Shown: in pieces, positions 7,921-19,774 of the stretch
Layout of the letters: every line of letters starts with the position of its first letter
How positions within the stretch are numbered: the stretch's first letter is position 1
Origin: Paenibacillaceae bacterium
GTDB lineage: Bacteria > Bacillota > Bacilli > Paenibacillales > JAWLCZ01
Direction of reading: 5' to 3'
Assembly (NCBI GenBank): GCA_041686835.1
Contig: JAWLCZ010000002.1
Coordinates: 1 to 55,494, forward strand
Length of the DNA stretch: 55,494 bases
Notes under the pieces: model-generated
The model's input: only the letters and a program-made list of their open reading frames with translations
Database searches by the model: none
What the model was told of the DNA's origin: nothing
Position numbers and translations under genes: made by a program

Positions 7921-9525
7921 TTATTTAGGGAGCACATTATGCTGTTGCGACGCCAACGGCAGGGTGATGCGAAAATTGGTTCCTGCGCTGCTCGTGCTTT
8001 CCAGCTCGATCGTTCCGCCATGATCCTGGACAATTTTGTGGCAGATCGAAAGGCCGAGCCCCGTACCGTGTTCTTTGGTGGTATAAAAAGGATGGAATAC
8101 TTTGTCCAACTCCGATTCCGGTATTCCTTTCCCCGTATCCTGAACCTCGACCACCGCATGATTGTCGGCATGGTACAGGCGAATGGTGACTTCCCCTTCG
8201 TCATTCATCGCCTCGAAGGCGTTTTTGACGAGATTGAGCAGAAGCTGCACCATTTTATCCTGATCCATTAATACATAAACGGGCGACGGTTCGTGTTGGA
8301 ATTGGATTTTATGGCCGAGACGGGTCGACTCCGATTCCATCAGCGAGATGACTCGTTGGATGCAATCGTTTAACGACTGGACTTTGAACTGGGTCGCATG
8401 CGGTTTGGAAAATTGCAAAAATTCGGCGGTCAGCTCGCTCATTCGCGTAATTTCATCCATAATCAGATCGTACCACGGCTCCACGATATAGCCGTTTGCG
8501 CTGGAAATTTGCAGAAATCCTTTTATGGTCGTAAGCGGGTTGCGAATTTCGTGCGCCATTCCCGACGCCAGTTCTCCGACGACTTTCAGTTTCTCGGCTC
8601 GGAACATGTGCTCTTCGCGTTTCAGCCAAATTTCCCGTTTCATCGAGAACAGATTTTTCTCCGCCACGAGAATCAAATCGTCCTTTGCTCTCGCGTCATC
8701 CGGATAAACGGCATATCCGTACGTCAGTTGGATTCCGATAAGCCGGGGCAGCTCCGAATTGAGTACATCGGACAGGCGGACGGCCGTTTGGGCGGGATCC
8801 TCCGTTTTTAAAACCAGAGCGAATTCGTCGCCGCCGTAACGGGCTATCATTAGCGCTTCGTCGGAAAATACGATTTTCAACAGATCGGCGATTTGCTTCA
8901 GCACCCGGTTGCCGCCTTGAAAGCCCTGTGCGTTGTTCATCGATTTCAAATCGGTGCAGTCAATATGGACGAGGACGAGCATATCCTCCTTCAGAAGTAG
9001 CTCCTCCAGCCGGTTATGGTAGGCTTCAAAATTCATCAGACCGGTCAGACCGTCATGCGTGGACAGGTGATCTTTTTCATGGTTCAATTGCTGTTTCTGC
9101 CGCTCCGTTGTGAAGAAATGGCCGCAAATATGCGCCAGTACGGCGGAAATAAAGAAATCGACCACAAGGATCAGCAAGCTTCGCAAATTCCACTCGGAAA
9201 AAGACAGGCGGACGGAAGAATAAACGGCGACGTAAAAATAAAAACGAATGTGCGCCAGCTTGTGTTGAGGGTTGCAGTAATAATACCTTCCCGCAAGAAA
9301 GCAGTACATCGGCATGCACCAGTTCAATTGGCTGAACCAATGAAACAAAGCAAGCAGGAATATTTGCCACAGCTCCCGGAAAGGAAGCTTGTCCTTAAAA
9401 TATTCGCATATAATGAACAAGGAAGCGGAACACAGTAAAAGCACGGTGCTGCGCGGCAATTGCAACGACAACGAGGAGACGGTCAGCAGCAACGTGTATG
9501 CCGGTACGATGAAATTTAATAACAT
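7921..9525 (-). CDS. Membrane-bound GGDEF-HisKA-HATPase fusion kinase (sporulation-kinase-like H-box)
   Basis: N-terminal TM helices; DGLTGLMN...ARYGGDEF; MAHEIRNPLTTIKGFLQ; NLVKNA, DTGKGI, FYTTK and GTGLGL boxes. Confidence 0.9.
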   Translation of the reverse strand: MLLNFIVPAYTLLLTVSSLSLQLPRSTVLLLCSASLFIICEYFKDKLPFRELWQIFLLALFHWFSQLNWCMPMYCFLAGRYYYCNPQHKLAHIRFYFYVAVYSSVRLSFSEWNLRSLLILVVDFFISAVLAHICGHFFTTERQKQQLNHEKDHLSTHDGLTGLMNFEAYHNRLEELLLKEDMLVLVHIDCTDLKSMNNAQGFQGGNRVLKQIADLLKIVFSDEALMIARYGGDEFALVLKTEDPAQTAVRLSDVLNSELPRLIGIQLTYGYAVYPDDARAKDDLILVAEKNLFSMKREIWLKREEHMFRAEKLKVVGELASGMAHEIRNPLTTIKGFLQISSANGYIVEPWYDLIMDEITRMSELTAEFLQFSKPHATQFKVQSLNDCIQRVISLMESESTRLGHKIQFQHEPSPVYVLMDQDKMVQLLLNLVKNAFEAMNDEGEVTIRLYHADNHAVVEVQDTGKGIPESELDKVFHPFYTTKEHGTGLGLSICHKIVQDHGGTIELESTSSAGTNFRITLPLASQQHNVLPK

Positions 9526-9605
9526 TACTTTCACGCTCCGTTGTAATGTTACAACATAAACCAATCGATTTGCGAAATCGCTTCCATTTGCAGTTTGGGC
9601 AATCC

Positions 9606-9635
9606 GCATATCTGCCAACCGTTTCGGATACAATA
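9606..9635 (+). promoter_or_regulatory. sigF-like promoter of the DUF3892 gene
   Basis: GCATA-N15-GGATACAATA fits the GYWTA-N15-GGnnAnAnTA consensus. Confidence 0.6.
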
Positions 9636-12725: not shown

Positions 12726-13016
12726 ATGTTTGAACGATTGTATGACGTGACGGAACAGTCCCGGGTCAATTTTTTCGGTTATATTTCGGAAAGGAACCGG
12801 TATGATTTTGCCATTATTTATACGAACCATTTTTTCGGAAAGCCGTTAGTCGTATGTATGCAGACGGGAAAGTCGTCTCTTCTCAGTATGGAAGATGTAA
12901 GCCATCTCGAGAATTTGCAGAAACTGTTCAGCATCCGCAGCCGCGATGAGGCGGAAGAACTGTCCGTTTTTTTGCGGCAGAGGCTTCCGGACGTCCCGAT
13001 GTCGGACCAATATTGA
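12726..13016 (+). CDS. DUF3055 family protein
   Basis: LYDVTE...RYDFAIIYTNHFFGKPLVVCMQTG. Confidence 0.8.
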   Translation: MFERLYDVTEQSRVNFFGYISERNRYDFAIIYTNHFFGKPLVVCMQTGKSSLLSMEDVSHLENLQKLFSIRSRDEAEELSVFLRQRLPDVPMSDQY

Positions 13017-13084
13017 AGCGTATTCGAATGAACGGAGGGCCGAAGCGGCGGAAGCATGCTTTGGCCCCTCCTTGTTTTTCGGCT

Positions 13085-14554
13085 TCAAGATATAGGTTCG
13101 GTCTCCACAATCACTTTCACGTAGCGCATCGATTTGTCTTCCGGTCCCTGAACCGGCAATCCGACCTTGAGATGATCCATAATGTAATCAATGTTTTCCT
13201 GGGAAATCACTTCTCCCGGAAGCAGAATCGGAATGCCCGGAGGGTACACGAAAATGAATTCGGCAATGATGCGGCCGGCCGCTTCCTTTAACGGCACGAT
13301 CTCCGTGTCCGCATAAAAAGCGTCACGCGGCGAAAGCGACAAATGCGGTATTTCCGGAATTTTCACCGTGATGTTGTCCGCTTCGCGCCTGCCGGAATGC
13401 TGCTCGGATAATTGCCGGAGGGCGGAAATGAGCAGTTCGACGGTCTCTTCCGTATCGCCCGGTGTAATCAGGCACAGGATGTTGTACATATCGCTTAATT
13501 CCACTTCGATGTTGTGGTTTTCCCGCAGCCATTTCTCCACTTCATAGCCCGTTAACCCGAGTTTGCGGATATGGATCGTAAGCTTGGTCGGATCATAATC
13601 GTATGTTGCTTCCGTTCCGATGATTTCTTCCCCGAAGCAGTACAGTCCGTCGATTTCGTTAATCTTTCTCCGCGCGTATTGGGCCAGGCGTATCGCTTTT
13701 TCCGCCAGTTCCCGTCCGTGCAGCGCGAGATTTTTGCGCGCCGTATCCAATGAAGCGAGCAGAATGTAGGACGTCGAGGTCGTGGTCAGCATGCTGATAA
13801 TCGACTGGACCCGTTTCGGATTCACCAGACCTTTCTTTACGTTCAGCACCGAACTTTGCGTGAGCGATCCGCCCAGCTTGTGTACACTGGTGGCGGCCAT
13901 ATCGGCGCCGGCCTGCATGCCGGAAAGCGGAAGCTTCTCATGGAAATGAATGTGCGCGCCGTGCGCCTCGTCGACGAGCACCGGGATGTTGTGGCTGTGC
14001 GCCAAATCGACGATCTGCTTCAGATCGGTGCATACGCCGAAATACGTCGGATTGATGACGAGCACCGCTTTGGCATCGGGATGGGCTTTCAGCGCCCTTT
14101 TTACCGAACTGACGGTGATGCCGTGAGCGATGCCGAGCTGATGATCCATCGCCGGGGAAACGAACACGGGTTTGGCCCCCGCAAAAATAATGGCGGTCAT
14201 GACCGATTTGTGAACATTGCGGGGAACGATGATTTTGTCTCCCGGGGAGCAGACCGACATAATCATCGTCATGATCGCCCCGCTTGTCCCCTGCACGGAA
14301 AAAAAAGTATAGTCGGCGCCGAACGCGTCGGCCGCAAGCTCCTGCGCTTCCCCGATAATGCCGGAAGGCGCGTGGAGGTCGTCAAGCGGCGCAATATTTA
14401 TCAAATCTATGGAAAGAACGTTGTCTCCGATAAATTGTTTGAACTGTTCATCCATGCCGGCGCCTCTCTTATGGCCGGGGATATGAAATTGAATCGGTTT
14501 CTTCTTTGCATGCTCAACCAATCCGGAGAACAGGGGAGTACGTTCATGATTCAC
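13085..14554 (-). CDS. speA: Arginine (Orn/Lys/Arg family) decarboxylase
   Basis: QFHIPGHK, VDEAHG, SVHKLGG (PLP lysine) and YPPGIP motifs; GTG start at 14554; gene context. Confidence 0.88.
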   Translation of the reverse strand: MNHERTPLFSGLVEHAKKKPIQFHIPGHKRGAGMDEQFKQFIGDNVLSIDLINIAPLDDLHAPSGIIGEAQELAADAFGADYTFFSVQGTSGAIMTMIMSVCSPGDKIIVPRNVHKSVMTAIIFAGAKPVFVSPAMDHQLGIAHGITVSSVKRALKAHPDAKAVLVINPTYFGVCTDLKQIVDLAHSHNIPVLVDEAHGAHIHFHEKLPLSGMQAGADMAATSVHKLGGSLTQSSVLNVKKGLVNPKRVQSIISMLTTTSTSYILLASLDTARKNLALHGRELAEKAIRLAQYARRKINEIDGLYCFGEEIIGTEATYDYDPTKLTIHIRKLGLTGYEVEKWLRENHNIEVELSDMYNILCLITPGDTEETVELLISALRQLSEQHSGRREADNITVKIPEIPHLSLSPRDAFYADTEIVPLKEAAGRIIAEFIFVYPPGIPILLPGEVISQENIDYIMDHLKVGLPVQGPEDKSMRYVKVIVETEPIS

Positions 14555-14646
14555 GGAAATTCTTTCCCTTCTGTATGATTTCGAATTCGTAAACAAAGTT
14601 GAGTATAACAAAAATGATAACCGATGCAAACTCCTTTTCCGCGGCA

Positions 14647-15759
14647 TTAGGAACGGTTTTTTTTCGGTTTTTCCCAATACTGCTCGTTACCCGGCAAGTC
14701 GTCAAACCAGGCCGCGTCTTTCGGGCAATCGAGAATCATAAACTTGCCGCATTCATCATCCCGGGACTGGTGGTATTTAAGATAAGCCTTTCCGTTTTCG
14801 ACAGCCAAAATTTCGATTTTGCCGGAAGTATGGCTCATGCAGAGCCTTACTCTTTTGCCCAGCCCCGAAGTCCGCGCTTTCGCTTGTTCAACGATGCGGT
14901 ACACTTCCTCCAGAGTCAGGACAAACGAGCGGTTTCCCGCCACCGGCCGGTTGACAAAGAAATAATAGGGTGTGATGCCCGCCCAGGACAGTTTGTCGAG
15001 CAATTCGCCGAGAACGGCCGGATCGTCGTTGATGCCTCTCAGGACCGGAGTCTGATTGACGATAATCGCCCCGGCGTCATGCAGCGCCCTGAAACCTCGT
15101 TTCGCCTCATCTGTAAGCTCTCTAGGATGGTTGATATGCGCCATAATATATATCCGCTTTTCTTCTGTGGAGTACTCGCGGATAATATCCAGCAGTTCCC
15201 GGTCTTCGTAAATTCTCATAGGATTGAATACCGGCATTTTGGAACCGATTCGGATGATTTTCACATGGTCGATTTCCCTCAACTGCTCAATGATCTGCCG
15301 CAGTCTGCGGGTTGACAGGGCGAGCGGGTCTCCGCCGGTTAAAAGCACATTGTTAATTTCCGGGGTGTTGGCGATATATGCGATTCCTTCCGCAACGTCC
15401 GAACTCGCTTCCTTCACATCTTCGCGAAACAACCGTTTTCTGAAGCAATACCGGCAATAGGCGCCGCACACTTCGGAGACCAGCAAGAGAGCCGTCGTGC
15501 CGTACTTGTGCTGACAGCCTGCGGCCACATAATTCGTCTCTTCGTCCGACGCATCCCAACGGCCGTATTCTACCAGCTCGCTTTCGGTAGGAATGACGAT
15601 CTTGCGGATCGGATCGTCCGGATCGGACCAATCAATCAGACTTAAATAATAATCGTTGACACGGAACACGTATGTTTCCGTCACCTGTTTCAGAACGTTC
15701 TTCTCATTGTCCGTCAGGTGGGGAATCTTCGCTATATCCGTAATATACTTCGGCTTCAT
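14647..15759 (-). CDS. KamA-family radical SAM/PLP amino acid 2,3-aminomutase
   Basis: CGAYCRYCFRK (CxxxCxxC), LLTGGD, IRIGSK, HINHPRE, NQTPVLRGIND, PYY and SGK (PLP lysine). Confidence 0.9.
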   Translation of the reverse strand: MKPKYITDIAKIPHLTDNEKNVLKQVTETYVFRVNDYYLSLIDWSDPDDPIRKIVIPTESELVEYGRWDASDEETNYVAAGCQHKYGTTALLLVSEVCGAYCRYCFRKRLFREDVKEASSDVAEGIAYIANTPEINNVLLTGGDPLALSTRRLRQIIEQLREIDHVKIIRIGSKMPVFNPMRIYEDRELLDIIREYSTEEKRIYIMAHINHPRELTDEAKRGFRALHDAGAIIVNQTPVLRGINDDPAVLGELLDKLSWAGITPYYFFVNRPVAGNRSFVLTLEEVYRIVEQAKARTSGLGKRVRLCMSHTSGKIEILAVENGKAYLKYHQSRDDECGKFMILDCPKDAAWFDDLPGNEQYWEKPKKNRS

Positions 15760-16948
15760 CACGGTCGGGTTCTCCTTCTTCTGAAGTTTCGGAAACGGAG
15801 CTTAGACCGGATATTTTGGGCAAGCCGCCGGTATAAAGATACCTGGCATATTCCAGCGGATTGATAAACGCTTTCTGCACCGTTTCACGATCGTACGCTT
15901 TATTCAACGACACTTTCGCGGATTTCGCATTGCATTCGATAAACCAGATTTTTCCTTTGTTGTCGATTCCCAAATCAATTCCGATTTCCCCGAACGGACC
16001 GTAAAATTTTTCCATGCTGTGATAGACCATAAAGAGGAATTTTTCCACTTCGCCTCTTGCCTGCATAATTTGCTCATCGCTGTACTTCAATTCGTTCTGG
16101 AGAAAATGTTCAAGCGGATACGCATCGGAGTGAATCGTGATAGGCGATTGTTTGCGTCCGACGCGTGCGCATATCCCGACAATTTCCAGCTCTCCGAGTT
16201 TGTTTCTTTGCAGCTCGGCGCGGAAATCGACAATGCGGTTATTGATCTTCAGCAAAGGAATGGCTTGTTGGACAATCACTTTGTTGCCTTTAAAGAAGCG
16301 GCGTATGATTCGGTACACACGGTCAAAACTGTTCTCTCTGCCGATAACTAAACGCTCGACGAAGTAACTGTACTCATAGCGGCCGCCGGGGAGCTTTTCG
16401 AGACGCATAACTTTTTCGCCGCGGCTTCCGTTCACCGATTTCAGATAGACTTTATCGCTGATTTTCAGCAGATCCTTCAGGTCGTTTTGATCCCGGAACC
16501 GGCGGGTGACAGGCAAATACGGCCTCATTTGTTCGACTTCCCGCAATTTTTTATACAAATCCCACTTATCGAAGTAATGCTGCGCATTCAACTTTTGAAT
16601 TCCCATTCGGGTAATCCGTTTTCTGACCCGCAAGGCGCGTTCCCACTGGCTTGTTGTTATTCCTCCGCAGCGATCGTAAAAAATATCCGGCAGGGGAAAC
16701 GTTTTTCTTTCCCATGTGCCTTTTCGGCTGTTATACAGAGTTCCTTTCACCGTCCGTTTGGCGAAGTTCACATCATTCACAGAGAAAAAATACACCGGTA
16801 CCCCTGTTTTTCGGCTTGCCCGATAAAGCCCGGCAAAACGAAAATTGTTCTGAATGTCGCCGCTCGAACTGTTCAAGTATTGAATGACGCCGCTGGATAC
16901 AAAAACACCCACATACGGATTGCGATTTTCGTTGGCGATTTTGCACAC
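15704..16948 (-). CDS. YheC/YheD-family ATP-grasp protein (start uncertain)
   Basis: FPLPDIFYDR, FDKW, YLKSVNGSRG, IVQQAI, DFRAELQR, EIGIDLGID and WFIECNAK motifs. Confidence 0.88.
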   Translation of the reverse strand: MCKIANENRNPYVGVFVSSGVIQYLNSSSGDIQNNFRFAGLYRASRKTGVPVYFFSVNDVNFAKRTVKGTLYNSRKGTWERKTFPLPDIFYDRCGGITTSQWERALRVRKRITRMGIQKLNAQHYFDKWDLYKKLREVEQMRPYLPVTRRFRDQNDLKDLLKISDKVYLKSVNGSRGEKVMRLEKLPGGRYEYSYFVERLVIGRENSFDRVYRIIRRFFKGNKVIVQQAIPLLKINNRIVDFRAELQRNKLGELEIVGICARVGRKQSPITIHSDAYPLEHFLQNELKYSDEQIMQARGEVEKFLFMVYHSMEKFYGPFGEIGIDLGIDNKGKIWFIECNAKSAKVSLNKAYDRETVQKAFINPLEYARYLYTGGLPKISGLSSVSETSEEGEPDRDEAEVYYGYSEDSPPDGQ

Positions 16949-17079
16949 CCCCAAACCAAGATAAATGCAACTATGCAACTTTTAGTGCGCTGCTTCTGCA
17001 AAGATGATTCATTATATTACCGAAAAGCGGAAAGAACACGGCAGTTGACTATAATTCCGTGATATTGCAGGACGTTCGT

Positions 17080-18438
17080 TCAAAGGGCGCCGGACGCTTC
17101 TTTGGCAAGGTATGTCGCATATTGAAATACGGACAAGTATTGGGGAGAAACGGATTTCGTGTCTTCAAGCCCGCGTATGGGAAGCTTCTCCGGCTTCGAG
17201 TTCGCTTCGATAAACCAAAGCTTTCCTTCCTTATCGACGGCCATATCCATTCCGAGTTCTCCGAGCAAACCGAACTCTTGTTCAATATATCGGGCAATCA
17301 TGACGGTTTTTCTTCGTATCTCCCGGCCGCGAGGAATATTTTCCGCACCGTTTCTTCTTTTCCAGTAGCGGTAAATCTCTTTGTATTTCCTGTAATTTTT
17401 TCCGATGGTCGTAATGGTCGCCCCGCGTTTGGCCACGTTAGCCTGGTTGTAGATCACTTTCCATTGTCCCGAACCGTTTTTGCAAATGAGCACGCGCAGA
17501 TCGAGCTTCCGCCCTTTAAAAGTCAATAAATCGATTCCTTTCTGCACGATCAGAGGTTTATCGCCCAGGAACCGGTAAATGCGGTTCTCCAGTTCCGAAT
17601 CGTTCTTCACGATCGCTCTTTTAAGACCGTGATGATAATGGTTTACAATTAACCCTTTTTTGGATTGTTCAACGGACATGACCTCTCTGCCCCGGCTGCC
17701 GTAAAACGATTTGATGTAGATCAGTCGGTGTCTCTCCAGCATGTCTTTAATGTCTTCGAATGACGTGCAGCGCATCGTCTCGGGCAAATATTCCCGCAAT
17801 TCGGCGTGTTGGCTCAACCGGTCATACAGTTCCCACTTTCCGAGATAATCGCTGTTGTTAATCAACCGGACAGCGGGATGTTCGGCAAACAGTTTCCGGA
17901 TGAGCTTTACTTCCGGTTTGAGCTCCCGATCAAACTTGACGCCGCAATCATAAATAATGTTGGGAAACGGAAAAGAACGGCATATCCATTTGCGCGAATC
18001 CGGAGCTTGCGCATACCCTTGAATCGACTGGTCTTTCCAGCGGATCTGGTCGATCGAAAAATAATAAATGAAACATTTTGCAGCCTTGTTGGCCTGTACG
18101 TTTTTAACGGCGGGCAACGGAATTTTTCCGCGCGCCAAGGAGGAAATAAACCGTGGATTCACAAAAATGCCGACCACCGGTCCTAAATAAATCGTCCGTC
18201 CGGCTTTCCATACATTCAGACGAATGCCGTTTATCAGCAGCAGCCGTTCGAAAAGATAGGCAGGCAAATAGATCGCGGCTGTGTGTTCATCCGTTTTTTT
18301 AACCGTTATATTTACGTTGAAATGCCCGACGGCCAGCGTGCAGTCTTGTTCGTCGATGAGGTCCAGCTGGTCGAAAATGTCCGAAGAAACATAGCACGCG
18401 TTTTCTTTACTGCGAAGCCTTTTTACAAGAACGTCCAT
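17080..18438 (-). CDS. YheC/YheD-family ATP-grasp protein
   Basis: LGPVVGI, FPFPNIIYD, LGKW, YIKSFYGSRG, IVQKGI, DLRVL, ELGMDMAVD and WFIEANSKP motifs. Confidence 0.9.
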   Translation of the reverse strand: MDVLVKRLRSKENACYVSSDIFDQLDLIDEQDCTLAVGHFNVNITVKKTDEHTAAIYLPAYLFERLLLINGIRLNVWKAGRTIYLGPVVGIFVNPRFISSLARGKIPLPAVKNVQANKAAKCFIYYFSIDQIRWKDQSIQGYAQAPDSRKWICRSFPFPNIIYDCGVKFDRELKPEVKLIRKLFAEHPAVRLINNSDYLGKWELYDRLSQHAELREYLPETMRCTSFEDIKDMLERHRLIYIKSFYGSRGREVMSVEQSKKGLIVNHYHHGLKRAIVKNDSELENRIYRFLGDKPLIVQKGIDLLTFKGRKLDLRVLICKNGSGQWKVIYNQANVAKRGATITTIGKNYRKYKEIYRYWKRRNGAENIPRGREIRRKTVMIARYIEQEFGLLGELGMDMAVDKEGKLWFIEANSKPEKLPIRGLEDTKSVSPQYLSVFQYATYLAKEASGAL

Positions 18439-18495
18439 TTTTTCCCTCCCAAGCCATGATTCATCATCTGTATCATCTTATGAGGAATCCGCCGA

Positions 18496-18511
18496 TTGGA
18501 ACGCGTTCCAA
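18496..18511. promoter_or_regulatory. Perfect 16-bp palindrome, possible operator
   Basis: TTGGAACGCGTTCCAA between the divergent ATP-grasp and MFS genes. Confidence 0.4.
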
Positions 18512-18622
18512 GAGAAAATGGACAAATGCCGTCTTCCGGCAATTTTTCTCCGTCCTCAACTTGTGGTACGATAGTAGGGGATTGTCAACATGACTACAGC
18601 ATGGCGGATGAGGAGGCATACA

Positions 18623-19774
18623 ATGAAGAAGCAGCTTTCCATGATTATGGTGTTGCTGATGACGACATTTATCGGGTTCGGGATCATTATTCCCGTCCTG
18701 CCTGCGGTGGTGTCTCCTTTTCATCTCGGAATGATGCTGGCGGTCTATTCCGCCGCTTCCTTCATGATGTCGCCGGTTTGGGGAGCGTTATCCGACCGGT
18801 TTGGCAGGCGGCCCGTCATCATTGCGGGAATATTCGGGTTCGGCGTCAGCTTTTTCCTGTTTGCCATTGCGGGGGGCAATCTTGGGCTGATGTATGTTTC
18901 GCGCGTACTCGGAGGATTGTTTTCCGGAGCCGTCACTTCATGCGCGGTCGCTTACGTGGCGGACATCACGACGGAGGAGAACCGGACGAAAGGAATGGGC
19001 CTGGTCGGGATGTCCATCGGTCTCGGGTTCATATTCGGGCCGGGCATCGGCGGTTTGCTGAGCCGATTCGGCTACGATGTTCCGTTTTTTGCAGCCTCCG
19101 GCTTGGCGTTCGTGATGATGCTGACCGCTTTCCTGTACCTGGGCGAATCGCTTCCGCAGGAAAAAAGGACGCGGCGGCGCGAGGCGAAACCTTCCAGATG
19201 GACGGCCTTTACAGGCCCGCTTAAATATTTGTACATACTCGGTTTTTTCGTATCGTTCACGCTGGCCGAACTGGAAACGACGCTGCAGTATTTTCAAATG
19301 GCGAGGTTTAACGCCACCCCGGCCGATATCGGCTTCATGCTCACCGTCAGCGGCATCGTCGGCGCGGCGATACAAGGAGGCGTCGTCCGCAAATATGTAA
19401 AAAAGGGCGGCGAACACAAGGTCATTCTCTACGGGCTCGTATTGTCGGCGGCCGGCTTTTTTCTGCTGCTGCTGTCCGAAAATTTGCTGACGGCGACCGT
19501 TTATTTAACGGTGTTTGCGGCCGGAAACGCGCTGATTCGCCCCTGCGTCACATCGCTCATTTCGCAAAAAACGACCGTCGGGCAGGGAACGGCTGCGGGT
19601 CTCAGTTCTTCGATGGACAGCCTGGGCCGCATTACGGGACCATTGCTCGGTTCGGGAATGCTGCAGCTCCAAATTTATCTGCCGTTCATCATCGGCGGAT
19701 TGTTGTCGCTGGCCGCCATAGGGCTGCTTTACCGCTACATCGCCTCGGACAGGGAAACTTCCTTGTCATATTGA
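18623..19774 (+). CDS. MFS transporter (DHA1/TetA-like)
   Basis: GALSDRFGRRP motif A, GFIFGPGIGG motif C; RBS GAGGAGG. Confidence 0.9.
   Translation: MKKQLSMIMVLLMTTFIGFGIIIPVLPAVVSPFHLGMMLAVYSAASFMMSPVWGALSDRFGRRPVIIAGIFGFGVSFFLFAIAGGNLGLMYVSRVLGGLFSGAVTSCAVAYVADITTEENRTKGMGLVGMSIGLGFIFGPGIGGLLSRFGYDVPFFAASGLAFVMMLTAFLYLGESLPQEKRTRRREAKPSRWTAFTGPLKYLYILGFFVSFTLAELETTLQYFQMARFNATPADIGFMLTVSGIVGAAIQGGVVRKYVKKGGEHKVILYGLVLSAAGFFLLLLSENLLTATVYLTVFAAGNALIRPCVTSLISQKTTVGQGTAAGLSSSMDSLGRITGPLLGSGMLQLQIYLPFIIGGLLSLAAIGLLYRYIASDRETSLSY

Follow-up and report, generated by a model that had tools for sequence, protein, structure and literature searches.

A candidate beta-amino acid ligation operon with a KamA-family aminomutase and two YheC/D-type ATP-grasp ligases in a Paenibacillaceae bacterium

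The DNA examined for the current report (hereafter "the window", 55,494 nucleotides in its entirety) carries three co-oriented genes on its minus strand that a first-pass annotation had brought together as two YheC/D ATP-grasp ligases and a KamA-family aminomutase. All three ORFs exist at the positions listed in Table 1, and both ligases are intact members of the Pfam family PF14398. A divergent MFS transporter gene lies on the far side of the presumed promoter region and a decarboxylase gene follows the mutase. A consensus scan of the minus strand of the divergent intergenic region found no site and identified no convincing promoter for the operon, and the window as a whole yielded no match to Rfam families.

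Table 1. Features of the mutase-ligase locus and its immediate neighbors
Feature	Position	Strand	Basis
First YheC/D ATP-grasp ligase, long YheD-like form, 452 aa	17080..18438	-	PF14398 ATPgrasp_YheCD
Second ATP-grasp ligase, shorter YheC-like form, 424 aa as longest ORF	15704..16978	-	PF14398
KamA-family radical-SAM/PLP 2,3-aminomutase, uncharacterized R/S type, 370 aa	14647..15759	-	TIGR00238
Overlap of second ligase 3' end and mutase 5' end, 56 nt	15704..15759	-	sequence reading
Divergent intergenic region, presumed operon promoter	18439..18589	.	sequence + consensus scan
Divergent MFS transporter	18590..19774	+	PF07690 at E 3.7e-54
Orn/Lys/Arg decarboxylase, SpeA-like, ~489 aa	13085..14554	-	PF01276 at E 8e-115

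The first ligase begins at ATG 18438, which is preceded by GGGAGGG, and matches the full 255-position model of PF14398 with its residues 191-444 (E 3e-67); it also has an extra N-terminal domain of ~85 aa, the Mg-site motif IEAN and a weak match to tubulin-tyrosine ligase. The second ligase likewise covers the full 255-position model (E 7.5e-72) and has the motif IECN, and its residues K158, R231, E326 and N328 are invariant in the corresponding alignment (A2). It may begin at 16978, 16954 or 16912, and comparison with relatives suggests that one of the two downstream positions, ~16954 or 16912, is the true one. The two ligases resemble the long and short architectures of Bacillus subtilis YheD and YheC, which are about 450 aa and about 365-385 aa in length, respectively, and which belong to the same Pfam family. 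The similarity is nevertheless remote; B. subtilis YheD and YheC are absent from the 71 relatives that were found for the first ligase, so that the link to YheD exists at the family level only. The best of these 71 relatives (52-61% identical) come from thermophilic Bacillota MAGs and a Brevibacillus MAG, and a predicted model of one homologue (P0273) matches full-length YheC/YheD-family clusters with TM scores of 0.87-0.89.

The mutase begins either at ATG 15759 or at GTG 15762, preceded by GAAGGAG, and its ribosome-binding site sits within the second-ligase gene. The overlap between the two genes (the ligase stop is at 15704) therefore measures 56 nt from the ATG or 59 nt from the GTG. The first-pass annotation had noted this overlap, and it is real in the window but is not conserved in relatives; its source is an acidic C-terminal tail of ~40 aa that is missing from the second ligase of other loci, where mutase and ligase genes are separated by 1 to ~250 nt or overlap only slightly.

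With 215.4 bits the mutase passes the cut-off (199.2) of the NCBIfam KamA-family model TIGR00238, and it falls under the cut-offs for the glutamate, lysine and arginine aminomutases and EpmB. Its only Pfam domains are Radical_SAM and Fer4_12. The best match of known structure is lysine 2,3-aminomutase (LAM; KamA/AblA, TIGR03820; PDB 2A5H, E 3e-55, residues 8-301), with which it shares the core, the CxxxCxxC motif, the carboxylate-binding Arg (R134 in LAM, R108 here), GGD, NQ(S/T) and the PLP Lys. The segments CGAYCRYCFRK, PYYFFVNR and LCMSHTSGK are all present in the translation. A HMMER alignment to 2A5H pairs R108 with R134 and R272 with D293. The pairing of S310 with D330 and of the PLP Lys, K315, with K337 comes from a MAFFT alignment to sequences scoring above the AblA cut-off, since the HMMER alignments end at LAM residue 322. 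Residues C99, C103, C106, R108, N271, R272, M309, S310, H311 and K315 are invariant in all 40 of the mutase sequences compared. Thus D293 and D330 are indeed both replaced, as had been proposed, and the loss of these two epsilon-amine-binding residues supports the view that the mutase is not a lysine enzyme. It further differs from LAM in its lack of the LAM_C domain, in a C-terminal third that does not align, and in a score of 212 against the AblA cut-off of 525.

The glutamate 2,3-aminomutase (TIGR04368) offers a parallel at these two positions. An exemplar that passes this model (P0221, 693 vs. 650 bits) reads PYYIFHAK and IVNAPKGLGK, which bears out the earlier statement of Lys and Asn at the two sites. 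The window mutase shares with it a cationic residue at the position of D293 and a small polar residue at that of D330. These are Arg and Ser instead of Lys and Asn, however, and its score is 231 against the 650-bit cut-off; it belongs to a separate subfamily, which is distinguished by a C-terminal domain of its own and by the motif MSHxxGK. Of the 114 representatives in which all three columns are covered, 52 have Arg at the R272 position. From these alignments, the R/S signature marks a large uncharacterized KamA subfamily that is neither of the lysine (D/D) nor of the curated glutamate (K/N) type. The exchange of D293 for a cationic residue and of D330 for a small polar one makes an anionic side chain a reasonable substrate, and an acidic substrate is accordingly plausible, if judged by sequence, although the frequency of Arg among the representatives implies that R272 is perhaps a feature of the subfamily instead of a determinant of specificity.

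The conservation of the yheC/D linkage, which the first-pass annotation had named as a point on which its proposal might fail, was followed in the best 80 of 216 related loci, all of whose carriers are spore formers. A tree of the 81 near-identical mutases (window included) divides into subclade A, with 19 rows, and subclade B, with 62; subclade A has 99% SH-aLRT support and is stable with 12 outgroups. YheC/D ligases adjoin the mutase in 18 of the 19 subclade-A rows (the window and 17 of the 18 other loci), as compared with one of the 62 subclade-B loci, in which an ATP-grasp gene lies 3 kb away. The exceptional subclade-A locus (L068) is without a ligase within 7 kb, and all eight of the neighboring ligases of relatives that were tested belong to PF14398. 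Fourteen of 18 subclade-A loci have an orthologue of the second ligase (36-54% identical) as the immediate neighbor of the mutase. The orthologue is upstream of the mutase in Bacillaceae, a Brevibacillus MAG and the window and downstream of it in the other Paenibacillaceae and in two further loci (L005 and L029), which means that the linkage outlasts rearrangement. The 18 rows are not 18 independent observations, as the subclade-A linkage goes back for the most part to a single event that was then inherited. At the 80% level the two subclades differ in just one alignment column, and by this measure A and B contain the same enzyme.

The genetic surroundings of the relatives provide clues to the kind of product that might be made. 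Eight of the 18 subclade-A loci have a PEP mutase and with it a 2-aminoethylphosphonate (AEP) core; in one of these (L024) the PEP mutase, phosphonopyruvate decarboxylase and AEP transaminase each pass their equivalog cut-offs. Such loci of Bacillaceae and Paenibacillaceae have up to five YheC/D paralogues, and APH-type kinase and Mur-ligase-like genes also occur in subclade-A contexts. Further afield, plasmids of Sinorhizobium meliloti, Rhizobium leguminosarum and R. indigoferae have an R/S-type mutase (37-40% identical) between two ATP-grasp genes; a Pfam search of the S. meliloti pair detected the L-amino-acid-ligase domain LAL_C2, and in R. leguminosarum and R. indigoferae the module has MFS genes upstream that are unrelated to that of the window. 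In other R/S-type mutases the fusion partner is a Ddl-type ATP-grasp domain (P0176, P0359-P0366), an NRPS condensation domain (P0166), or a TauD-like or NUDIX domain, and a Bradyrhizobium operon has the order mutase, gamma-glutamyltransferase, 7TM protein, ATP-grasp. Together, the subclade linkage and these distant pairings and fusions with other ATP-grasp families support a functional tie between the mutase and the YheC/D ligases, and the contexts point to ligase-built small molecules and not to modification of spores or proteins.

Precedents exist for such a partnership. In the EpmB-EpmA pair, a KamA-family enzyme and a ligating partner bring about the beta-lysylation of EF-P, and the window operon follows the same logic. 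It is also the logic of AblA-AblB, in which a KamA-family enzyme makes a beta-amino acid that a neighboring enzyme then acylates or ligates; the product, N-epsilon-acetyl-beta-lysine, serves as an osmolyte according to the relevant part of PMC9337991. The partners in the window differ from both in being two ATP-grasp ligases instead of a GNAT or an aminoacyl-tRNA-synthetase paralogue, and the substrate is a non-lysine one. Clusters of Paenibacillaceae in which several ATP-grasp ligases flank an AEP core and "may produce a peptide" have been described (Li and Horsman 2022, PMC8942020), and as far as that description is drawn on here, the same architecture surrounds the mutase subclade of the window; the portion of the paper in question does not mention a KamA-like gene. 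The window operon departs from AEP and L-amino-acid-ligase pathways in having no phosphonate core (a scan of 49 ORFs between 80 and 42513 revealed no phosphonate gene) and in its ligases of the PF14398 YheC/D type instead of the LAL type. In the Pbo cluster of Pseudomonas syringae pv. phaseolicola, as outlined in PMC8473136, the genes pboE-pboI include an MFS protein, the LAM-like radical-SAM protein PboF, the L-amino-acid-ligase-like ATP-grasp protein PboG, a 2OG dioxygenase and a second MFS protein, with a NUDIX gene nearby and a product given as unknown. The TauD-like, NUDIX and ATP-grasp domains of these partners recur in the fusions to R/S-type mutases, a likeness that for PboF itself is one of description. 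The Pbo cluster also has NRPS and PKS genes, which the window operon lacks.

On balance, and by a modest preference over all other possibilities combined, we favor the reading that the product of the three-gene operon is a non-ribosomal peptide or amide, assembled by the ligases and with a beta-amino acid among its constituents. The KamA-like enzyme, with its [4Fe-4S] cluster, SAM and PLP, would shift the amino group of a free amino acid from the alpha carbon to C3, as may be expected from its conserved catalytic residues. The substrate would be a non-lysine amino acid, most likely one whose anionic side chain is contacted by R272 together with S310 and H311; the conversion of glutamate to beta-glutamate is the leading candidate, at somewhat less than an even chance. 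On the strength of the family chemistry and the conserved linkage, each YheC/D-type ligase would then convert a carboxylate to its acyl phosphate and use this to form an amide bond, whereby the beta-amino acid is coupled to one or two more building blocks or is oligomerized. The product, possibly a small peptide, might be exported by the divergent MFS pump, a weakly indicated candidate exporter. In the AEP loci of Bacillaceae and Paenibacillaceae the product would be a phosphonate-capped peptide, of which the window would make a version without the phosphonate part.

The first-pass annotation, whose interpretation as a whole is partly supported, had tentatively placed the ligation step on the spore surface: beta-glutamate from the mutase would be attached to coat or other proteins, or polymerized on them, by ligases acting in the manner of RimK and TTL, to give a protease-resistant surface. 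We consider this quite unlikely. It is in keeping with it that every carrier is a spore former, that the architecture of the first ligase is YheD-like over its full length, that the ligase profile finds in the PDB a nearest solved relative, tubulin-tyrosine ligase, which is a protein modifier (E 0.002), and that a CATA-type -10-like element, a faint resemblance, precedes the first ligase by ~45 nt in the window and in one other locus (L003). The association of YheC and YheD with the B. subtilis spore coat is itself confirmed by the pertinent part of PMC7725329, but what stands behind the spore-surface claim is membership in that family, and the window has no coat context. Neither the window nor the loci examined show a linkage of the system to coat, crust or sporulation genes, a sporulation promoter that was looked for upstream of the first ligase could not be established, what is conserved in the surroundings is a phosphonate core accompanied by several ligase paralogues, and the non-sporulating rhizobia have analogous modules with L-amino-acid-ligase-type enzymes and MFS pumps. 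The opposite extreme, an ordinary lysine 2,3-aminomutase that lies beside unrelated YheC/D genes by chance, agrees with the label "lysine 2,3-aminomutase" that some JGI and NCBI records give to relatives and with LAM as the best structural match; it is disfavored as very improbable in view of the replaced Asp residues, the AblA score, the absence of LAM_C and the contrast in ligase adjacency between the two subclades.

The osmotic-stress connections of subclade B deserve separate consideration. A c-di-AMP riboswitch is located directly upstream of the mutase in 14 of the 30 subclade-B loci scanned, an opuC-like operon ends with the mutase gene in one locus of this subclade (L073), and White et al. 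(2022, PMC9337991, in the part cited here) connect ablA and eam, as genes under Na+ and c-di-AMP riboswitches, with the synthesis of osmoprotectants. These contexts and the Bradyrhizobium gamma-glutamyltransferase linkage plausibly lend indirect support to an acidic substrate, and they suggest that the free beta-amino acid is an osmolyte where the paralogue stands alone under riboswitch control, the ligase-linked copy having been recruited from that role. The ligases of the window might accordingly act on an anionic beta-amino acid to give an amide or dipeptide, neutral or zwitterionic, that is retained for osmotic balance, in parallel to beta-glutamine or to the AblA-AblB product, and the near identity of the sister enzymes and an AblA-AblB fusion among more distant relatives (P0235) would fit. 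We regard this as unlikely, however, as the riboswitch is found in none of the 18 subclade-A loci or the window, the subclade-A contexts resemble specialized-metabolite clusters, and a divergent efflux-type MFS protein favors export over retention. An equally unlikely option is that R272 and its neighbors may just take up space in a pocket meant for a small or neutral amino acid, as in a conversion of alanine to beta-alanine for instance, and that the peptide made by the ligases is a beta-aminoacyl one similar to carnosine. The ATP-grasp enzymes include carnosine synthase, and AEP is the phosphonate analogue of beta-alanine; moreover, the subfamily-wide Arg occurs in very different contexts, which is hard to fit to a single acidic substrate, and the curated glutamate enzyme has Lys/Asn. 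Against this, the position in question is the one at which LAM and the glutamate enzyme bind the distal group of the substrate, so that a cationic residue there is most simply matched with an anionic partner, and the gamma-glutamyltransferase and osmotic-stress linkages suit glutamate and beta-glutamate better.

Of the flanking genes, the divergent MFS gene is not conserved in its linkage to the mutase across the 80 loci, and its assignment as a Tet protein was rejected (177.6 against the Tet-family cut-off of 475). The Orn/Lys/Arg decarboxylase is probably a neighbor outside the system: a relative of it is found within 7 kb of the mutase in none of the 80 loci, and it has its own ribosome-binding site and a GTG start at ~14554, behind a promoter-like TTTGCA-17-TATACT with an upstream TG at 14630-14602.

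The two ligase genes and the mutase gene of the window are intact and lie in a run of four long ORFs (see table). The start codon of the first ligase is ATG 18438, preceded by GGGAGGG, and that of the mutase is ATG 15759 or GTG 15762, preceded by GAAGGAG; for the second ligase the start is ambiguous (16978, 16954 or 16912), since its relatives, which are 368-377 aa long, align from its residue 19-23. The 56-nt overlap of the second ligase with the mutase that had been seen in the first-pass annotation is present, with the ligase stop at 15704 and the mutase ATG at 15759, and is brought about by an acidic C-terminal tail of ~40 aa in the ligase (15704-15830, minus strand; SETSEEGEPDRDEAEVYYGYSEDSPPDGQ). 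None of the second-ligase orthologues in the comparison has this tail, which may be functional or the result of read-through. Over both ligase genes (16001-18000) the G+C content is 0.470, versus 0.53-0.59 in the 6 kb upstream and ~0.52 in the whole window, a mild difference that is compatible with acquisition of the operon. Scans of 12900-18800 returned promoter-like sites (8 vs 6.5) and terminator-like sites (9 vs 7.8) at the level of shuffled sequence; no inverted repeats were found, and no sigma-E or sigma-K promoter could be established by eye upstream of the first ligase in the window or in the Brevibacillus MAG locus L003. The Orn/Lys/Arg decarboxylase was considered as a member of the system that supplies an amine building block and was rejected; it is a neighbour only, with a start and a promoter-like site of its own and with linkage to the mutase in 0 of 80 related loci.

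Positions of genes and RNA elements (L numbers denote genome loci that encode relatives of the mutase)
Feature	Locus and position	Strand	Remarks
Four long ORFs	window, 13085 to 18438	minus	
First ligase	window, 17080-18438	minus	452 aa; PF14398 over whole model, E 3e-67
Second ligase	window, 15704-16978	minus	424 aa as longest ORF; PF14398 over whole model, E 7.5e-72
Mutase	window, 14647-15762	minus	above cut-off of NCBIfam KamA-family model TIGR00238
MFS transporter	window, 18590-19774		divergent from, and upstream of, the ligase-mutase genes
Orn/Lys/Arg decarboxylase	window, downstream of mutase		own RBS; GTG ~14554; promoter-like site 14630-14602
Mutase between two ATP-grasp genes	L081:5514-9337; L084:3540-7411; L085:3436-7329		
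c-di-AMP riboswitch RF00379	L020:6723-6863		equivalent positions in L014, L066, L044, L053, L064, L071, L057, L063, L079, L077, L072, L008, L074

By its score against TIGR00238 (215.4 bits, cut-off 199.2) the mutase is a member of the KamA family, and it falls outside the curated families for glutamate 2,3-aminomutase (TIGR04368, 230.9 bits, cut-off 650) or lysine 2,3-aminomutase (TIGR03820, 212.2 bits, cut-off 525.4); the models for arginine 2,3-aminomutase and EpmB gave 209 bits (cut-off 600) and 193 bits (cut-off 369). Pfam finds the radical-SAM core only, with no match to the LAM_C domain PF12544. The KamA hallmarks are present, namely CxxxCxxC, the carboxylate Arg two residues past the third Cys and the PLP Lys. 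HMMER aligned residues 8-301 with lysine 2,3-aminomutase (LAM, PDB 2A5H; E 3e-55), pairing R108 with R134, Q237 with Q258 and R272 with D293, and the numbering was confirmed by counting along the printed chain. Since this alignment ends at LAM residue 322, the remainder was mapped by alignment with NCBIfam-classified cluster representatives, which pairs S310 with D330 and K315 with K337; the invariant K315 lies opposite the Lys of DAPGGGGK in proteins that pass the AblA cut-off. Around D293 and D330/K337, the lysine-type representatives P0270, P0222 and P0235, which pass that cut-off, read PYYLYQCD and VVDAPGGGGK, the glutamate-type representative P0221 (693 vs 650 bits) reads PYYIFHAK and IVNAPKGLGK, and the window mutase reads PYYFFVNR and LCMSHTS--GK. 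Residues C99, C103, C106, R108, N271, R272, M309, S310, H311 and K315 are invariant in 40 close relatives. The mutase lacks the lysine-binding pair D293/D330, in whose place stand R272/S310, and the first-pass annotation was right in describing a pocket that differs from that of lysine 2,3-aminomutase and in stating a replacement by Lys and Asn in glutamate 2,3-aminomutase, as P0221 has K and N. The acidic-substrate pocket that it suggested is plausible: both Asp residues are gone, but the pair is R/S and not K/N, and the mutase lies outside the curated glutamate family.

The combination of Arg, Ser and the PLP Lys is frequent in this part of the family. All three columns could be scored in 114 of the nearest 150 cluster representatives (50% identity level); these 114 read R/S/K in 52 cases, D/D/K in 26 and K/N/K in two; none of the 41 nearest full-length representatives has a curated equivalog match. 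Taken together, these signatures place the window mutase, as judged by sequence, in a large, separate and uncharacterised R/S-type KamA subfamily that has (F/Y)xxRP and MSHxxGK as its hallmarks. Once assigned, the reaction of this subfamily would annotate many genes that are now mislabelled as lysine 2,3-aminomutase.

YheC/D linkage is a conserved property of the mutase subclade to which the window belongs. A scan of one genome per species yielded 216 loci with a close mutase relative, and in the best 80 of these, all from Bacillaceae and Paenibacillaceae and with mutases 75-82% identical, YheC/D ATP-grasp genes lie within 5 kb of the mutase in 18. A maximum-likelihood tree of the 81 mutases divides into subclades A and B (99% SH-aLRT), and the division is kept after the addition of 12 outgroup representatives. 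The 19 rows of subclade A comprise the window, 17 ligase-linked loci and one locus with no ligase (L068); the 62 rows of subclade B include an ATP-grasp gene in L017 only, at a distance of 3 kb. The prediction that the linkage would be conserved in neighbours is thus borne out within subclade A (18 of 19 rows), in counts that, among the best 80 of 216 loci, reflect largely one inherited event. In 14 of the 18 other subclade-A loci a second-ligase orthologue with 36-54% identity abuts the mutase; this gene lies downstream of the mutase in Cohnella, Paenibacillus and Gordoniibacillus and, as in the window, upstream of it in the Bacillaceae and the Brevibacillus MAG, so that the ligase-mutase pairing has outlived rearrangement. 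Among the 80 loci, the full order of ligase 1, ligase 2 and mutase recurs beyond the window only in L003, at 54-55% identity. Some genomes carry one copy per subclade, as in Halalkalibacter alkaliphilus (L004 and L021) and H. flavus (L019 and L017). Since only one alignment column tells A from B at the 80% level, the copies of the two subclades almost certainly catalyse the same predicted reaction. Gordoniibacillus kamchatkensis has its second-ligase orthologue in two overlapping ORFs (L010:8217-9318), owing to a frameshift that reflects a pseudogene or a sequencing error.

The YheC/D family of ATP-grasp proteins, reportedly defined by Iyer et al. in 2009, is large in Bacillota and to our knowledge without a known substrate. 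The first and second ligases score 226.9 and 242.1 bits against PF14398 (gathering score 26.8) and carry the Mg-site E-x-N motifs IEAN and IECN; K158, E326 and N328 of the second ligase are invariant in an alignment of its relatives. The first ligase is rare, with 71 relatives across the whole protein collection, among which a word-limited search did not return B. subtilis YheC or YheD. Comparison of the ligase sequences with solved structures gave nothing useful for either, and a ligase profile gave only a marginal match to TTL.

Phosphonate genes are frequent companions of the pair in subclade A. A PEP mutase accompanies the mutase and ligase in 8 of the 18 loci, usually together with phosphonopyruvate decarboxylase and 2-aminoethylphosphonate (AEP) transaminase, and in L024 all three exceed their equivalog cut-offs. 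Up to five YheC/D paralogues, in long and short forms, occur in the AEP-linked clusters, and all eight of the neighbouring ligases tested match PF14398. The 49 window ORFs scanned (80 to 42513) include no phosphonate gene, and hence none of this AEP core. In their treatment of Paenibacillaceae AEP clusters, Li and Horsman (2022; PMC8942020) describe flanking ATP-grasp ligases and remark that such clusters "may produce a peptide"; the mutase is not mentioned in that treatment. Elsewhere in subclade A, APH-type kinases are present in L061 and L065, and in Neobacillus rhizosphaerae (L046:3219-13286) the mutase and four YheC/D ligases lie amid two Mur-ligase-like genes and an NlpC/P60 peptidase, a context that suggests a cell-wall- or poly-amino-acid-related product. 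Rfam returned nothing in subclade-A loci except one group II intron fragment in Paenibacillus piri (RF00029, L051:6732-6806, 43.8 bits), just upstream of the mutase.

The association of mutase and ATP-grasp ligases recurs with non-orthologous ligases and in the form of fusions. Rhizobial plasmids commonly carry R/S-type relatives that are 37-40% identical (141 matching records), and gene contexts were drawn from the five of these records that were opened. In Sinorhizobium meliloti (L081), R. leguminosarum (L084) and R. indigoferae (L085) the order is ATP-grasp, mutase, ATP-grasp on one strand. Both flanking ligases of L081 carry the L-amino-acid-ligase domain LAL_C2 (Pfam, run on L081), and those of L084 and L085 are annotated as ATP-grasp proteins of the biotin-carboxylase family; upstream lie an MFS gene in L084 and L085 and the genes for aspartate kinase, aspartate-semialdehyde dehydrogenase and EctB (DABA-pathway) in L081. 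A Bradyrhizobium locus (L082:6770-11535) has the mutase, a gamma-glutamyltransferase, a 7TM protein and a Ddl-type ATP-grasp tightly packed, with overlaps at two of three junctions, and in L086 the mutase stands alone among insertion sequences. The mutases of L081 and L082 have the motifs PYYLFQGRP and MSHYTGK. Fusions join R/S-type mutases to Ddl-type ATP-grasp domains (P0176, P0359-P0366), an NRPS condensation domain (P0166), TauD/CsiD-like dioxygenases (P0350-P0353, P0355, P0356) and a module of NUDIX and metallo-beta-lactamase domains (P0357). The Pbo operon of Pseudomonas syringae pv. phaseolicola, as tabulated in PMC8473136, consists of MFS, the LAM-like radical-SAM protein PboF, ATP-grasp, 2OG dioxygenase and MFS genes; its ATP-grasp is L-amino-acid-ligase-like, a NUDIX gene adjoins, and the product is given there as not known. 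Apart from the Pbo table we found no published mutase-ligase pairing in open-access text, and an earlier description in a subscription journal is possible.

Subclade B presents a different setting for the same enzyme. A c-di-AMP riboswitch (RF00379, 47-84 bits) lies immediately 5' of the mutase on the same strand in 14 of the 30 subclade-B loci scanned, all from Paenibacillaceae or the unclassified L008; it is absent from all 18 subclade-A loci, from 11 Bacillaceae loci of subclade B and from two further Bacillaceae loci of that subclade. Where gene maps of riboswitch loci were printed, the flanking genes vary and frequently lie on the opposite strand, which makes the mutase there appear to stand alone. 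The window mutase is not of this riboswitch-controlled form, as it falls in subclade A and the Rfam scan of the window gave zero matches. In Paenibacillus albiflavus (L073:3521-8173) the mutase starts 6 nt past an opuC-like operon, as its last gene, behind genes for an ABC ATPase that carries CBS domains, one permease, an OpuAC binding protein and another permease. Overall, 14 loci have ABC+CBS genes in the vicinity of the mutase. White et al. (2022), in the part of their work that concerns ablA and eam, count these as osmoprotectant genes under Na+ and c-di-AMP riboswitches (PMC9337991). Based on the riboswitch, the opuC-like operon and this precedent, the free product of the mutase is probably a compatible solute; among the beta-amino-acid solutes known to us, the mutase pocket excludes those derived from lysine, and beta-glutamate would fit its cationic residue. 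The riboswitch on this paralogue offers an easy physiological handle for the product. A class-III aminotransferase adjoins the mutase in L048 (5343-6797) and 23 more subclade-B loci, in 23 of these loci on the opposite strand, often with an RpiR regulator and a TAXI-TRAP transporter close by; it resembles glutamate-1-semialdehyde 2,1-aminomutase (351 bits, cut-off 398) and might be a beta-amino-acid transaminase. A conserved ORF of ~258 aa, without Pfam or NCBIfam match, follows directly 3' of the subclade-B mutase on the same strand in L026 (8562-9503) and 22 other loci.

In the scheme that we favour for the operon of the window, the mutase would supply a beta-amino acid and the two ligases would use it in condensations that yield a small peptide or amide. 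Whether the putative substrate of the mutase is acidic we regard as evenly balanced, and glutamate in particular falls somewhat short of that; a small or neutral substrate seems unlikely. Going by the phosphonate and MFS contexts, the product could be an exported specialised metabolite; a modified osmolyte is likewise conceivable. The first-pass annotation had looked instead to the spore surface. The weak TTL-like similarity of the YheC/D family and the fact that every carrier is a spore former agree with modification of the spore coat by the operon product, but the one basis for this reading is the name of the family, and no coat or sporulation gene occurs among the 49 window ORFs scanned; we consider the proposed role very improbable.

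A more comprehensive picture, which we offer tentatively and consider rather doubtful as a whole, would make the R/S-type KamA enzymes a second, independently evolved group of 2,3-aminomutases for glutamate or another acidic amino acid, widespread in bacteria. In Paenibacillaceae their stand-alone form would provide c-di-AMP-controlled beta-glutamate as an osmolyte or K+ counter-ion, and a derived copy would have been captured by YheC/D ligases that build beta-peptides and AEP-capped phosphonopeptides, with the logic of the module arising anew with L-amino-acid ligases on plasmids of rhizobia. If so, free beta-amino acids would be the first inferred substrates for the YheC/D family. Three orphan problems converge here, namely the substrates of YheC/D, the reaction of the R/S-type KamA enzymes and the Paenibacillaceae AEP clusters, and the conserved coupling to a mutase predicted to form beta-amino acids turns the first of them into a concrete, testable substrate hypothesis; the AEP clusters gain a predicted beta-amino-acid building block.

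Two minor observations may be added. In P0342-P0349, which are labelled Planctomycetota, an R/S-type mutase is extended at its C terminus by a region that has a prepilin N-methylation motif. Farther along the window (7921-9633, minus strand) there is a histidine kinase with a GGDEF domain before HisKA and HATPase, whose top NCBIfam matches, both under cut-off, are AtoS-like and KinD-like.
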